The notes under the pieces were generated by a model. That model was given only the letters and a program-made list of their open reading frames with translations, was not told the DNA's origin and searched no databases. A stretch of 64,000 bases of DNA, taken from contig CAVYRH010000005.1 of NCBI GenBank assembly GCA_963770835.1, positions 192,001 through 256,000 on the forward strand. The letters are read 5' to 3'. This document shows, piece by piece, positions 41,198 to 54,377 of this stretch (its first letter is position 1; each line of letters starts with the position of its first letter). Source of the DNA: an uncultured Pseudomonadota bacterium. Lineage in GTDB: Bacteria; Oederibacteriota; Muellerivitia; Muellerivitales; Muellerivitaceae. Made by a program: the position numbers and the translations under genes.

Positions 41198-41274
41198 GCG
41201 CCTGTAGCTCAGTTGGATAGAGCAACTGCCTTCTAAGCAGTAGGTCGGGAGTTCGAATCTCCCCGGGCGCACCA
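41198..41274 (+). tRNA. tRNA-Arg(UCU); attL of element 1
   Basis: GCGCCTGTAGCTCAG...ACTGC-CTTCTAA-GCAGT...GGGCGCACCA. Confidence 0.96.
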
Positions 41275-41289
41275 TATTTTTCAACGGTT

Positions 41290-42405
41290 CTACAACTTCG
41301 CTTCTTGGCTGGTGCCCGCCCGTGTCATATCCGTGTCAAACTGCCGCTCAACCTGCTTCAGCGCGTTCACCCGGTCTTTCCGGTCAATCCGGTTATACCG
41401 TTTGAACATCGCGTAGGTCTTATGGCCCGATATGGACATGATGACCGAATCGCTTACCCCCGCTTTTCTAAGATTCGTAACCGCGCAATGCCTGAGATCG
41501 TGGAACTTGAAATTTCCGATCCCTACCATGCGGCACGCCCTCAAAAAAGCTGTCTTGACGCTCCGGATGCGCTTTCCCCTATGGGTGAAGATATAAGGGC
41601 TTCCCAGGGTCTTAGGCGTCCGTTTCAAGAGGTCTAACAAGCCCTCCGTCAACGGGACTTCCCGTTTCTCCTGGGTCTTGGTGTCCGCGGCTTCCAGGTT
41701 GACCACCTTGTTTTGGAAGTCCACCTGATCCCAACGCAACCCCAAAATTTCCCCTTTCCTCATGCCGGTCCAATAAGCCAATTGGACTATGACACTTAGG
41801 CGGGGGGCGCAATGGGGCAAAAGCGCCTCGTATTCCTCCGGCGTCAAGGTGCGGTCGCGGGATTCTTCCCGGAAAGGCCTTACCCTCTGGATCGGGTTTT
41901 TCTCAACCAAGTCGTTGAGGACCGCCCGATTCACGATTGACTTGAGAGTCCCAAGGTCCCGGTTGAGGGTGCAGTTAGTCAGCACCTTCCCGCTACGGCC
42001 TTGATTCGTGGATTGGTTTCCAGCCTTCCTCCGTTGGGTTAAAAAGCCCTCAACTATGTCCGGCGTTAAGCTCCTCAAAGGCCTGCTACCAAAATAAGCC
42101 TTGAGCCGCTCGACTATCTGAGAATCGTTCTTGTGGCTTTTCCTTCTTGCTTCGGAATAGGCCAGGAACGAATCCGCCGCCTCGTTGAAGGTGACCTCCG
42201 GTTTTTCCACAGCCAGAAACTTTCCTGCCACAATTTCTTGCGTGTGTTGGGCTAGTATCTTCTTGGCCTGGGTTACCGGTATTTCTCCCAATCGGACCCG
42301 CTTGCGTTTCCTCAATCCTCCTTCCTGGATGAAATAATCCAAAAAATACCCTTTTTCATCCTTGCGGAGAAATTGGGGCAATCCATGAACATTAGGTCTA
42401 CTCAT
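41290..42405 (-). CDS. Tyrosine recombinase/integrase
   Basis: TGMRKGE, HDLRH, SGH, KRY catalytic motifs; short N-terminal arm-binding-like domain. Confidence 0.97.
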   Translation of the reverse strand: MSRPNVHGLPQFLRKDEKGYFLDYFIQEGGLRKRKRVRLGEIPVTQAKKILAQHTQEIVAGKFLAVEKPEVTFNEAADSFLAYSEARRKSHKNDSQIVERLKAYFGSRPLRSLTPDIVEGFLTQRRKAGNQSTNQGRSGKVLTNCTLNRDLGTLKSIVNRAVLNDLVEKNPIQRVRPFREESRDRTLTPEEYEALLPHCAPRLSVIVQLAYWTGMRKGEILGLRWDQVDFQNKVVNLEAADTKTQEKREVPLTEGLLDLLKRTPKTLGSPYIFTHRGKRIRSVKTAFLRACRMVGIGNFKFHDLRHCAVTNLRKAGVSDSVIMSISGHKTYAMFKRYNRIDRKDRVNALKQVERQFDTDMTRAGTSQEAKL

Positions 42406-42589
42406 TTGTCCCTCCTAATGTCCCCAGCAATTTGAATACTACCAGGGACTAAGATTTTTTCAAAAGAACTTTCAACGAGAGTTACGAAAAACTCGAAAAG
42501 TTCAATACCGTACTCGAAGCATTGAAAGCGTGGTTTTTTGCTGTTTGTTTTGATTTTTGTTTGGATGAAAGAAGTAGTCGTAAATATTT

Positions 42590-42714
42590 CCGCAATATGG
42601 GCGGCATACCGAACCAAGAGGGCAGACCCCACTACCGATTTCCTGGATAAGAACTTGATCCAGGGGGAGTGGGGTCTGCCGTCGCAGGTGAGCAATCCGC
42701 CGCCCATATTGCGG
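42590..42714 (+). ncRNA. Conserved long stem-loop A (structured RNA or ssDNA hairpin), element 1
   Basis: 16-bp and 13-bp perfect stems; compensatory changes relative to the copy at 50671-50795. Confidence 0.65.
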
Positions 42715-43060
42715 TTTTTTCTTGGAAAAGGATGTGAGTCTGAGTCAAGTTCCGCTTTAACCTGTTTTAAGTTCCGTTTAAAGTCGGTTGAGGTTCTCTT
42801 TGGAGAAGTTTGAAAAATGGATTGGCTGTGGTCGAAGCCTTGGGTGATTTTGCCTTCGGCCTTTTTCCTATTTGAACGTTCTAGCAGGGAAGGGTCACAA
42901 ATTGGCAAGGCGAGATCTTCGGCCCGTCTATCGGCCTTTAAATGCAAAAGCTCAAATTCAAGGTTCTCGATCATGACTAACATCCCGTAATGAGATCGAC
43001 TTCTTGAATTATCTTGAGAGCCCGTGATTATCTTTTCAATGTATTTTATTTTCGACTGTC

Positions 43061-52051: not shown

Positions 52052-52284
52052 CGACAAAAACAGCCGGAAAAATCTGCCCCCTTTGCGGGGGAACCAAAAA
52101 ACCTGGGAAGGCCACTTTCACTGTTGAGACGGGGGAAGGGGTTGTTGTGGTTCGAAATGTTCCAGCCGAAATTTGCGATTTGTGCGGGGAAGAATGGATT
52201 GCCGCCAATGCCGCGAAAGAACTTGAAGCCCATGTTGAAAGCGCCCGCCAAAAACACCTTCAAGTTGAAGTTGTGCCTTTTTGA
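52048..52284 (+). CDS. YgiT/MqsA-type zinc-finger putative antitoxin
   Basis: CPLCGG...VVVVRNVPAEICDLCGEEW; ATGA overlap with the DUF4258 gene. Confidence 0.9.
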   Translation: MTTKTAGKICPLCGGTKKPGKATFTVETGEGVVVVRNVPAEICDLCGEEWIAANAAKELEAHVESARQKHLQVEVVPF

Positions 52285-52323
52285 TTTAATTCCCGTTTAG
52301 TCCGCTTGTAATAGGAGTAAATA

Positions 52324-54120
52324 TTGGTTCGGAAATTTCTCCTAATTCCTTTATTTCTTTTTTGGGGGATTCCTTTTCAGGCCGAATCTCAGTCTGGCGA
52401 AGTTGTCAAACCGACTTTAGACCCATTGATATACATAAAATCAAAAGAAGGTGTTTTGCACCAGGATGTCAGGAACATTCGGGATATTGCCTTGGACTTC
52501 GCCGGCAATATTTTCCTCTTGGATTCCTTTCACCTGGGTGTTCAAAAGTTTACCAATGATGGCCATTTTTTAACGAATTGGGGTGCGACGACCGATAAAT
52601 CCAAACGTATAGGTGATAGCCTAGCCATCGACCCAAAAGGAAACCTCTATCTTTTAACGATGAAAGGTGTTGTTTTTAAATACACGAATAAAGGTGTTCC
52701 TCTTCAACAATATGCCCCAAAGGAAATAGAGCCGGGACAGTATGAGGGGACTACTTCCATCCGTTTTTCGAACGGACACTTTTTTATTTTGGACAGGTAT
52801 CATTGTAAGGTCCAGATTTTTGACCAGGATTTCCATTATCTATCCTCCTTTGAACTTCCATCCGAACTCCGTGATTCAGGCCGCATGAAATACTGCCTTT
52901 GCCGCAATATGGCCGTAGACAGCTTGGAGAATATCTACCTGGACAGCAAAGGGGAGATCGATAAGTACGATAAGAACGGGAAACTCCTAAAACGGGTTGG
53001 TTATCCAGGCAACGGGCATGGGGAATTCATGGGGATTAATGGGATAGCTGTTGGTTCGATGGATCGTATTTATGTTATCGACCGGGGCCGAATCCAGGTT
53101 TTTGACGATGATTTAAATTTTTTGATGCAATTCAAACCCCGTGAAATGGTCCAACACCTAGCCATTGATGGCCATGGCTACATTTACACTGCCGGTTTGG
53201 AAGAGAGTGTGGAGAAGTTCGCTAAGTATGACGGCCCCTTCATTCTGAAAAATGCAGAGGAATTTACAAAGTATTCCGATGACCACAATAGCCCGGATTA
53301 TCCACTCCTCGAAGTCGGTCCGGACGGAAAAATCCCGCCGACCTTTTGGAGATACTCTCCTAGGATAGAAAAAGTCACCAGCGAACTTAAAACAGTTAAT
53401 TCAAAAGATGATTTGATCGTATTTGGGAAAAAATATTCCAAATTCAGTGGCCAGGATAGCGACGAAGATACTTCTCCGGACAAGGGTGAATTCTTAAAAA
53501 AGCTCAAAGAGATGGGGTTCATCCCGGAAGCGGGAACCGAGTCCGGTTTCTTCCAGTTCAAAGAAATCCAAAGCCCCCATCTTTACTACTGGTGTTTCAA
53601 CGATTTGGTTTATGGGATTTTCCCCGAAGACCCACATCAAGCGGTGGAAATAACCCGGTTTCCCGGTAAATTTACCGGAGTTTGGCGTATCAACGAAGTT
53701 ATTTCTGCGGAAAAAATGGGGCCAGGCTGTTACCGATTTTCAAAGAGTGAATCAGGGAAATACGAGCCGAGCTCCACCCTAACGATTTCGGACGTGGATT
53801 TGAACCGGAAGAAAATGGATGCTTATTCATCCGAAGGTTATCTGAAAGACCTGGATCATAACGGCAAGAATGAGTGGATTTATTACTTGAGCACCGGGGA
53901 CAAGTTTGAAATTTTCCTTTGGCCCTATGTCTTTTCCTGGGACGGACAATCTTGGGCAAATGTCAGCGCCACTTACCCCATCTTTTATAAGACTGAGGCC
54001 TTTGAAAACCTGAAATCTGTTGAAAAATGTTGCGTCGGCCAATATTACACTGACCCGAAATTGGTTGCCTTGTTGGAACAGGCCGCCTTGGCGGGCGGCC
54101 CCAGCGCGTTTAGTAAATAA
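52324..54120 (+). CDS. Secreted NHL-repeat (beta-propeller) cargo protein
   Basis: Signal peptide; DIALD.AGNIF.LD...VQKF and GIAVG..RIYVID..RIQVF repeats; DLDHNGKNE loop. Confidence 0.85.
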   Translation: MVRKFLLIPLFLFWGIPFQAESQSGEVVKPTLDPLIYIKSKEGVLHQDVRNIRDIALDFAGNIFLLDSFHLGVQKFTNDGHFLTNWGATTDKSKRIGDSLAIDPKGNLYLLTMKGVVFKYTNKGVPLQQYAPKEIEPGQYEGTTSIRFSNGHFFILDRYHCKVQIFDQDFHYLSSFELPSELRDSGRMKYCLCRNMAVDSLENIYLDSKGEIDKYDKNGKLLKRVGYPGNGHGEFMGINGIAVGSMDRIYVIDRGRIQVFDDDLNFLMQFKPREMVQHLAIDGHGYIYTAGLEESVEKFAKYDGPFILKNAEEFTKYSDDHNSPDYPLLEVGPDGKIPPTFWRYSPRIEKVTSELKTVNSKDDLIVFGKKYSKFSGQDSDEDTSPDKGEFLKKLKEMGFIPEAGTESGFFQFKEIQSPHLYYWCFNDLVYGIFPEDPHQAVEITRFPGKFTGVWRINEVISAEKMGPGCYRFSKSESGKYEPSSTLTISDVDLNRKKMDAYSSEGYLKDLDHNGKNEWIYYLSTGDKFEIFLWPYVFSWDGQSWANVSATYPIFYKTEAFENLKSVEKCCVGQYYTDPKLVALLEQAALAGGPSAFSK

Positions 54121-54332
54121 ACTGGATGTGCAGCCGTGTCATATACGTGTCAAACTCAACCATGCTTTACCGTGCTTGACCATCCCTTACTGCCATTGAC
54201 CGTCACTTGAAAAAAAGGCCCTTGCCCCCGCAGGTCGTAAAACCGTTGAGAACAAAGGCCTTTAAAAATGTGCTGGGGACTGATAAATTTTAATAAACAA
54301 TCTAAAAGAGCTTCCGAATATGGTCCGTGTGA

Positions 54333-54377
54333 TTTACACGCAGGGGGTCACAGGTTCGAATCCTGTTTCGCCCACCA
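54333..54377 (+). repeat. attR of element 2: displaced 3' half of tRNA-Val
   Basis: TTTACACGCAGGGGGTCACAGGTTCGAATCCTGTTTCGCCCACCA. Confidence 0.95.

Follow-up and report, generated by a model that had tools for sequence, protein, structure and literature searches.

How does a genomic island move when an integrase gene is the only mobility gene that it carries? The question is raised by two neighbouring elements, E1 (41230-45742) and E2 (49323-54377), in contig CAVYRH010000005.1 of an uncultured soil bacterium of the GTDB family Muellerivitaceae (assembly GCA_963770835.1). We analysed the 64,000 nucleotides from 192,001 to 256,000 of this contig; this stretch is called the window, and positions count from its first letter. 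We consider it rather probable that E1 and E2 are integrase-only hitchhikers with two predicted origins of transfer (oriTs) for different MOB_C-like relaxases and with a stop-free reading frame that would carry ribosomes across one of them.

Two islands of 4.5-5 kb in tRNA genes

A sequence-only reading of the window had described two elements of common layout, and the attachment cores (attL and attR), integrases, module, toxin-antitoxin (TA)-like pairs, cargo and right ends all proved to lie where it had placed them. The identity between attL and attR begins in both at the 7-base anticodon loop (41230/45698; 49323/54333). The E1 core, CTTCTAA (41230-41236), recurs at 45698-45704 and is followed by a tRNA 3' half up to 45742; the E2 core, TTTACAC (49323-49329), recurs at 54333-54339 with a tRNA 3' half up to 54377. 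The uninterrupted tRNA-Arg gene of a relative (G004) equals the E1 5' half joined to the attR 3' half, letter for letter, indicating that attR holds the displaced original and that the replacement half was brought by the element. The tRNA-Val gene was without insertion in 5/5 relatives examined and the tRNA-Arg gene in two of five; two others (G001 and G002) carry different elements there, and in G003 the contig ends at this point. E1 and E2 are genuine tRNA-targeting islands of 4.5-5 kb.

The two integrases are 80% identical, match PF00589 and contain the catalytic R-K-H-R-H-Y motifs. Identity is 79.6% between the modules (42406-43560 and 50487-51650; 1164 columns) and 89% between the right ends (45512-45669 and 54136-54293), while the TA-like pair and cargo of E1 are unrelated to those of E2. 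An assembly duplication is ruled out by the 80% identity, the different tRNAs and the different cargo, and a cis-mobilizable element, which keeps its att sites and loses its integrase, by the fact that both integrases are intact. The earlier reading had recognized no xis/alpA, primase, rep, relaxase or capsid gene, and none was found within E1 or E2: xis, relaxase, rep and capsid genes are absent from both, a relaxase profile search gave no match there, mating-pair formation (MPF) genes are likewise missing, and so are the primase/rep, AlpA and capsid-morphogenesis genes of phage satellites (P4-like, phage-inducible chromosomal islands).

Two hairpins as likely origins of transfer

Each module contains two hairpins of opposite direction, with direct repeats on the 5' side of each (Table 1). 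A model of hairpin 1 also detects hairpin 2, which runs the other way, with a score of 54-55 bits; the next unrelated match scores 11 bits, and we regard the two as one family. Their stems covary: 61 cells changed on both sides and three on one side, hairpin 2 stems show no one-sided changes, and G-U pairs are almost absent from either hairpin. Two-sided changes of this kind would suit a DNA palindrome better than a folded RNA. An Rfam scan of 40500-55500 returned tRNAs only, and wobble counts gave no clear strand choice. The sequence-only reading had proposed non-autonomous elements whose mobility information lies in nucleic-acid structure; non-autonomy and the weight of cis sites stand, but the structure appears to consist of DNA palindromes rather than folded RNA, which leaves that reading incomplete.

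The hairpins accompany a relaxase-like gene in sister elements. Among 54 such loci (L117, whose contig ends in the gene, was left out; L116 is a frameshifted long branch), a hairpin lies at most 330 bp after the stop codon in 35, of which 24 have hairpin 1, ten hairpin 2 and one a third subtype. In the protein tree, a single branch (99/96) divides the carriers of hairpin 1 from those of hairpin 2. Hairpins lie 80-130 bp behind the relaxase-like genes in three clades, and the subtype changes with the clade; in the divergent clade (~30% identity), seven of eight loci have a third-type hairpin with 16-32-bp arms 85-129 bp after the stop, and the contig of the eighth ends there. Hairpin 2 was found at 40 sites in 31 genomes. 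By hand count, the contig carries a relaxase-like gene no more than 50 kb away at 23 of these. In 22 the hairpin is downstream of the gene and has its direction, nine sites being directly behind it and 13 at a distance of 4.6-46 kb; one site precedes the gene. Hairpin 2 of E1 and E2 is the A-T variant of the large elements, not the G-C variant beside the genes of type B elements (see below). Searches with hairpin 1 against plasmids and with the hairpin 2 pattern against viral contigs gave no match.

The repeats and the hairpin arms can be compared with published MOB_C origins (here and below, statements from cited papers refer to their accessible parts). Autocorrelation 5' of both hairpins is highest at lag 22, with z-scores inflated by kinship, and two to three direct repeats of 22-bp period lie 45-110 bp 5' of each hairpin; pAD1 has five repeats, and the MOB_C protein TraX binds direct repeats 70-120 bp from its nicking (nic) site (PMC12857230). 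Published MOB_C nic sites read GGGTG/GTCGGG (PMC5935869) and GGTTG/GTCGCG (PMC7755788). Compared with the CloDF13 and ICEKp1 nic sites, the G-rich arm of the third subtype has GTCGGG after a G-run, an exact match, while hairpin 1 has GTCTGG/GGCTGG and hairpin 2 has GTTCGC. Given that the hairpins lie behind relaxase-like genes in three clades, that their subtype tracks the clade, that they covary without G-U pairs and that they resemble MOB_C nic sites, they are likely to be oriTs for MOB_C-like relaxases.

The relaxase-like protein itself fits this assignment. In its structural model (pLDDT 87) the N-terminal part is a winged helix (Z 8.2) and the C-terminal part resembles restriction nucleases (residues 97-262; SdaI, Z 7.0, root-mean-square deviation 3.6 over 128 aligned residues), the same two domains as MOB_C TraX (PMC12857230, PMC5357655), and its PD..ExE motif is invariant. 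Its Atlas neighbours carry PF13814 at 0.95 (17-54% of members), and one relative of 68% identity is annotated PF13814; a PF13814 search of the window's own genome was uninformative, as it matched nothing anywhere, controls included. A TraD-like gene lies upstream in clade A, in large elements and at 8/8 divergent loci, and none lies beside clade B. Together these features make the protein a likely MOB_C member. Two of its loci, L172 and L173, are near-identical.

Some of the same observations would also be expected if the hairpins were single-strand origins (ssi/sso-type) or replication origins of the circle, the real oriT being elsewhere or lost. Even where 4.6-46 kb separate them from the relaxase-like gene, they keep a fixed direction to it; two copies of the same direction lie 1.6 kb apart on contig C10, the covariation is of DNA type, and hairpin 1 is more stable on the antisense strand in 26/29 copies. 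We nevertheless think such origins unlikely, for the subtype follows the relaxase clade three times over, the 22-bp repeats stand at a MOB_C-like distance and GTCGGG occurs in the third-subtype arm.

At L116 / L061:3171-3264 (G025:C15), where the relaxase-like gene carries a frameshift, hairpin 2 has lost its conserved asymmetric loop and is now a perfect palindrome. L175 and L178 have assembly gaps (NN) exactly in the third-type hairpin loop, and such palindromes may break assemblies. By eye, hairpin 2 of large elements often follows the 3' end of a umuC-type-looking gene (L008, L017, L018, L023). Near-identical stretches at G000:C9:1-5700 and C10:1-5400, each with hairpin 2, are either tandem copies or an assembly repeat of a tRNA-Thr element (G000 is the window's own genome, and its contigs are numbered C1 onwards).

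Stripped members of a larger family

The sequence-only reading had suggested that larger relatives carrying the module be sought, and these exist, with xis, TraD-like and relaxase-like genes that make them likely helpers. The integrase clade of E1 and E2 has seven copies in the own genome and many in relatives; the module has matches in 21/30 other genomes of the bacterial family and in 1/30 outside it, and named records with the sister relaxase-like gene belong mostly to candidate division FCPU426. From 40 fetched regions and the own-genome loci we mapped four types of element. Type A has the order TraD-like gene, relaxase-like gene, hairpin 1, xis, int, all in one direction. In type B, int and xis lie beside a relaxase-like gene that diverges from them and has hairpin 2 behind it. 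Type C joins the xis-less module to a relaxase-like gene; it is represented by G027 L059, which shares its tRNA-Val target with E2. Type D, the layout of E1 and E2 with neither xis nor relaxase gene, recurs at G012 L077, at G002 L078 and L096, and at metagenome locus L104. The xis gene (HTH_17) stands immediately ahead of int on C10 and C1.

On the integrase tree (49 rows, quick tree), the neighbours of E1 are tRNA-Arg elements and those of E2 are tRNA-Val elements, both groups being xis-bearing. The xis-less module sits on at least seven separate integrase branches. As this needs at least seven changes on the tree, the module appears to pass between integrases as a cassette. By the comparison of genes and layouts, E1 and E2 can be described as stripped members of a larger family of integrative mobilizable elements (IMEs) with xis, TraD-like and MOB_C/Replic_Relax-like relaxase genes. 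The new minimal family proposed earlier thus survives in part: the layout does recur elsewhere, but as reduced forms of the larger IMEs. A decayed xis hidden in the module was considered and rejected: tblastn gave no xis match, and the shared part is only the last 35-50 nt (ribosome-binding site (RBS) and promoter). Nor is the module the decayed coding sequence of a prophage or an integrative and conjugative element (ICE).

We think it quite unlikely that E1 and E2 are remnants unable to move, left behind when larger IMEs lost their xis and relaxase genes in place. That their closest integrases sit in elements with xis and relaxase genes at the same tRNAs, and that their module is joined by a relaxase gene at G027 L059, would fit such a loss. 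Remnants would hardly be expected to have intact integrases with a dN/dS (ratio of nonsynonymous to synonymous change) of 0.14, to retain both hairpins, the repeats and the open frame, to share an xis-less module collinear in four genera and scattered over the tree as described, or to recur with other cargo in G012, G002 and L104.

The clade shows further variation. At 55-90% identity, its members use tRNAs for Arg, Val, Asp, Ser, Thr and Pro as targets, a set suited to studying core-site retargeting, and the clade also inserts in reverse relative to the tRNA, with int at the attR end (L001:1016-12938, L067, L082, L105, L107). At G000:C19:427460-427863 (L006) and L088:6396-6726, a tRNA-Asp 3' half is flanked by two right ends in facing orientation, likely the junction of tandem elements that run in opposite directions. 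Inspection by eye found the first ~74 aa of a family integrase fused in frame to a molybdate-binding-like protein (L004:12927-13946, G000:C2), a second, intact integrase without adjoining tRNA on the other side of the mod-like genes (L004:7368-8438, G000:C2), and three tandem recombinase-like genes, RIT-like, within a large tRNA-Thr element (L002:6765-10013, G000:C10).

A stop-free frame across hairpin 1

The module had been taken to be non-coding; this does not hold for half of it, which is under selection against stops. On the minus strand, 42402-42983 is a conserved open frame that begins at a conserved ATG, and we refer to it as the bridge frame. In E2 the stretch is split between two frames, the ATG of the second lying 8 nt before the TAA of the first, and together they still cover the whole of it. 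The frame is stop-free in 8/9 xis-less copies, while each other frame has 1-19 stops. In type A elements the equivalent frame starts with an ATGA on the stop of the relaxase-like gene, has its own RBS and ends at the start of xis; it is stop-free in 11/12 parsed copies, and the twelfth stops at the xis RBS (two of 14 clade-A copies, L080 and L088, open for 261 and 125 codons, were not parsed). Neutral, substitution-only simulation on the inferred trees kept a mean of 0.14 of eight and 0.77 of 11 copies open, and the observed level was never reached in 1600 and 2400 runs. Five of five new metagenome loci, picked by the hairpin pattern alone, were open up to the int start.

The peptide shows no such constraint. 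The dN/dS of the bridge frame is 0.92 and 1.18 (0.86-0.88 outside the hairpin; the xis-less set excludes E2), as compared with 0.14 for int and xis, and change is equal at all three codon positions. Hairpin 1 is read in two different frames among copies, and the G017 copy runs for about 165 nt in another frame and then returns. Neither the 193-aa frame nor other open reading frames (ORFs) of the module matched Pfam, NCBIfam, PHROG or the Atlas. Given that the frame is stop-free and yet has a dN/dS of about 1 and shifts between frames, it is likely to be a translation bridge; the simplest reading of these substitution patterns is selection for translation itself, with a peptide predicted to be dispensable.

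A precedent is known from phage P4, in which translation of eta prevents termination and eta is coupled to the upstream gene (PMC10111431). Hairpin 1 could by analogy be a regulatory RNA, similar to P4 CI RNA, within an eta-like gene, translation overriding RNA-triggered termination before int. The two frames are alike in size (about 190 codons) and coupling, and the covariation is strong. Against this, G-U changes are nearly absent, Rfam has no match, the homologous hairpin 2 has no conserved frame across it (at least 103 codons in 3/26 copies) and no gene coupled behind, and the hairpins associate with the relaxase-like gene, which makes the regulatory RNA very unlikely. Least probable is a real, fast-evolving disordered protein shared by E1 and E2 (a substitute for a recombination directionality factor (RDF), or a relaxosome helper): conserved frame length and ends, a protein search yielding 19 sequences including the window's own (most 186-199 aa, 44-88%), and the RBS and ATGA overlap in xis-bearing elements could be so read, but neutral change at all codon positions, the frame excursion of G017, the two frames and the E2 split contradict it, and it has no family match (Atlas recognition 1814, best score 0.76).

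Likely sites for Int and Xis, and candidate helpers

The tandem GTGTCA site is present in a single copy at each element end, as expected of arm sites. A motif of 10-11-bp period trained on 14 other right ends gives its top window scores to the right ends of E1 and E2 (43.6 and 40.1 bits), scores the modules at 29.0 and 28.5 bits, and next best reaches 10.5 bits. RDFs bind such repeats beside arm sites and over the promoter of the xis operon. The 10-bp repeats of module and right end are likely Xis sites. A TGn-TAnnnT sequence was seen by eye ahead of the family's integrases.

Potential helpers are encoded in the same genome: five relaxase-like genes, TraD-like genes, three xis genes (among them those at C10:70000 and C1:7057) and two VirB4-like genes above the PF19044 cut-off, on C2 and C12. 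The VirB4-like genes lie in ICE-like regions (G000:C2:170289-191000 and C12:1-16300) with otherwise unrecognised transfer genes; the region on C2 has its own int and xis at a tRNA-Cys.

Table 1. Positions in the window of the features of E1 and E2
Feature	Position	Strand	Remarks
E1 attL, tRNA-Arg(tct) with element-supplied 3' half	41198..41274	+	core 41230-41236 is the anticodon loop
E1 tyrosine integrase, 371 aa	41290..42405	-	PF00589; closest relatives 89-90%, same tRNA-Arg, with xis and relaxase-like gene
E1 likely arm-type Int site (GTGTCA tandem), in int 3' end	41322..41340	+	twin of 45512-45530; function predicted
E1 bridge ORF, 193 codons, across hairpin 1	42402..42983	-	stop overlaps integrase ATG (ATGA)
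E1 predicted integrase promoter TTGAAA-16-TAGTAT, extended -10, inside bridge ORF	42436..42463	-	3 sites vs 2.3 by chance, weak alone
E1 hairpin 1, likely oriT of relaxase clade A	42590..42714	-	core arms 42621-42633 / 42668-42680
E1 direct repeats of 22-bp period (CGGAA core), 5' of hairpin 1	42740..42782	-	likely relaxase binding sites
E1 predicted leftward promoter for bridge ORF and int	43027..43055	-	not above chance, position only
E1 repeats of 10-11-bp period, right-end motif	43061..43112	+	likely Xis/RDF sites
E1 direct repeats of 22-bp period (CATGGAA), 5' of hairpin 2	43226..43266	+	likely relaxase binding sites
E1 hairpin 2, likely second oriT subtype	43314..43404	+	core arms 43330-43345 / 43373-43388; direction opposite to hairpin 1
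E1 DUF433 + DUF5615 (PIN-like) pair, likely TA	43711..44297	+	domain matches
E1 cargo, TPR protein, likely exported	44315..45454	+	domain match; hydrophobic N-terminus by eye
E1 right end	45512..45742	+	arm site 45512-45530, periodic repeats 45540-45583, core 45698-45704, displaced original tRNA-Arg 3' half
E2 attL, tRNA-Val(tac)	49291..49367	+	core 49323-49329
E2 tyrosine integrase, 367 aa	49383..50486	-	arm site at 49415; clusters with other tRNA-Val integrases
E2 bridge, two overlapping frames	50483..51071	-	88 aa 50805-51071; 110-111 aa 50483-50818; ends ATGA on int
E2 hairpin 1	50671..50800	-	core arms 50702-50714 / 50750-50762; three 22-bp repeats next at 50822-50886
E2 repeats of 10-11-bp period	51149..51200	+	likely Xis sites
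E2 22-bp repeats and hairpin 2	51314..51492	+	repeats 51314-51354; hairpin 51402-51492
E2 DUF4258 + YgiT-type zinc finger pair, likely TA	51722..52284	+	domain matches
E2 cargo, NHL/beta-propeller protein, likely exported	52324..54120	+	domain match; hydrophobic N-terminus by eye
E2 right end	54136..54377	+	arm site 54136-54154, periodic repeats, core 54333-54339, displaced tRNA-Val 3' half

Proposed mobility and the points that weigh against it

For E1 and E2 as borrowers of helpers we propose the following course. Int would recombine the 7-bp cores through the arm sites at both ends; the empty sites testify to insertion, and the chemistry of this step is that of tyrosine integrases. Excision would require Xis supplied in trans from C10 or C1, for which the 10-bp repeats, both those of the right end and those lying over the leftward promoter, would be the sites. 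The circle may be nicked by either of two relaxases, with the 22-bp repeats as their binding sites: that of clade A (C1) would cut at hairpin 1, and that of the large elements with TraD (C5/C9) at hairpin 2. Transfer would use a TraD-like protein together with the VirB4 system encoded in one of the ICE-like regions (C2 or C12). The transcript that leads to xis/int runs through hairpin 1; for this reason the bridge frame, on which the simulations reveal selection, would prevent polarity and couple the translation of int, its peptide being predicted dispensable. The TA pair would stabilise the island.

A stronger version is possible, and we offer it tentatively: E1 and E2 would be dual-key hitchhikers that outsource everything but Int (excision factor, relaxase, coupling protein and pore), with one oriT for each of two co-resident relaxase clades. 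They would depend on a gene that serves through the act of translation alone: a ribosome bridge of 130-190 codons across an oriT, kept clear of stops without selection on its peptide and exchanged as a cassette among integrases that differ in tRNA specificity. A new MOB_C-like relaxase/oriT family would also be defined, in which the origin lies behind the gene.

A number of observations weigh against the proposal. As to the relaxase, Z values of 7-8 are middling, the protein has no match of its own in Pfam, NCBIfam, PHROG, PDB sequences or plasmids, and Foldseek gave nothing at E<=0.001 (best FokI, E 2.7e-3). As to the origins, the nic likeness amounts to 4-6 letters and is weakest for hairpin 2. 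No hairpin lies within 700 bp downstream of 19/54 relaxase-like genes, nor in the 4-kb flanks of those hairpin-less genes that were searched, hairpin 2 being 4.6-46 kb away there. Known oriTs are mostly upstream of the relaxase gene (bioRxiv 10.64898/2026.01.13.699239), unlike the hairpins, which are downstream, and linkage alone could make the hairpin subtype follow the relaxase clade. As to the frame, open frames of at least 103 codons cross hairpin 1 in sense in 28/29 copies but also in antisense in 14/29 (three reverse-strand duplicates of 32 dropped). Six type B elements that have no hairpin 1 also show a leader frame ahead of xis. It is shorter and ends between -45 and +11 nt relative to the xis start, so the presence of such a frame does not depend on the hairpin alone. 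Promoter and terminator scans gave calls not above chance, and promoter assignments are positional only. Finally, helpers may be damaged, the TraD gene on C1 being in pieces and the C19 relaxase shortened at its C-terminus, and no relaxase-like gene was found in G001, which has module copies.

Relation to known mobile elements

By their gene content and predicted oriTs, E1 and E2 would work like relaxase-less IMEs (iOriT/MGI, the latter being mobilizable genomic islands). An island with integrase and oriT and without relaxase is already described under these names (PMC5704250; bioRxiv 10.64898/2026.01.13.699239), a point on which the earlier reading is wrong or incomplete. E1 and E2 are att-delimited, have one tyrosine integrase of their own and neither relaxase nor MPF genes, and co-occur with relaxase-like, TraD-like and VirB4-like genes; the hairpins and repeats, in their predicted oriT role, are common to both islands and the relaxase-adjacent sites. 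Their size is near the 4-kb lower edge of iOriTs, which were described from six nosocomial species, where 85% of islands with an oriT carry one and most are unrelated to their helpers beyond it (bioRxiv 10.64898/2026.01.13.699239). E1 and E2 differ from iOriTs in that they are closely related to their helpers, lack xis and have two predicted oriT subtypes in opposite directions; the hairpins follow the relaxase gene, and the oriT family has no plasmid match.

The MGIs mobilised by SXT/R391 (MGIVflInd1) and the islands with ICEKp1 oriTs likewise combine their own integrase and a helper-related oriT with a borrowed relaxase and pore, but SXT-type MGIs measure 18-33 kb and encode their own RDF, whereas E1 and E2 measure 4.5-5 kb without one (PMC5704250). 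The relaxase predicted here is MOB_C-like rather than MOB_H. Membership in the SXT type was rejected on finding no xis match in E1 or E2, whereas xis precedes int on C10 and C1. The sister elements recall the modules of pAD1 TraX, CloDF13 MobC and streptococcal IME_Class_8 in the row coupling protein, winged helix-turn-helix/PD-(D/E)XK gene, xis, int and in direct repeats 45-110 bp from a large palindrome (PMC12857230, PMC5357655, PMC5714925). They differ by a tyrosine rather than serine integrase and by a protein below the PF13814 threshold, and E1 and E2 retain the cis parts only. With eta/kil of P4 the bridge frame shares a leader translated across a structured region and coupled to its neighbour; in P4 the structure is the immunity RNA and Kil is functional (PMC10111431), here the structure is DNA-site-like and the peptide evolves neutrally. 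Searches of the openly accessible literature gave no description of this element family or of a neutral frame over an oriT. New here are the predicted oriT family, its two subtypes in one 5-kb island, the loss of the RDF and the product-neutral bridge frame.

Significance

For tiny "integrase-only" islands that gene-based tools call immobile, the proposal would supply a concrete mechanism of mobility. It predicts oriT sequences for a relaxase family missed by current profiles, and the three co-diverged pairs of protein and site are a ready test of specificity. The bridge frame, with a dN/dS of about 1, no stops and two frames, is a clean natural case in which translation appears to be selected and the product not. 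Such frames are annotated as hypothetical proteins, and they may be common where a cis site lies inside an operon.

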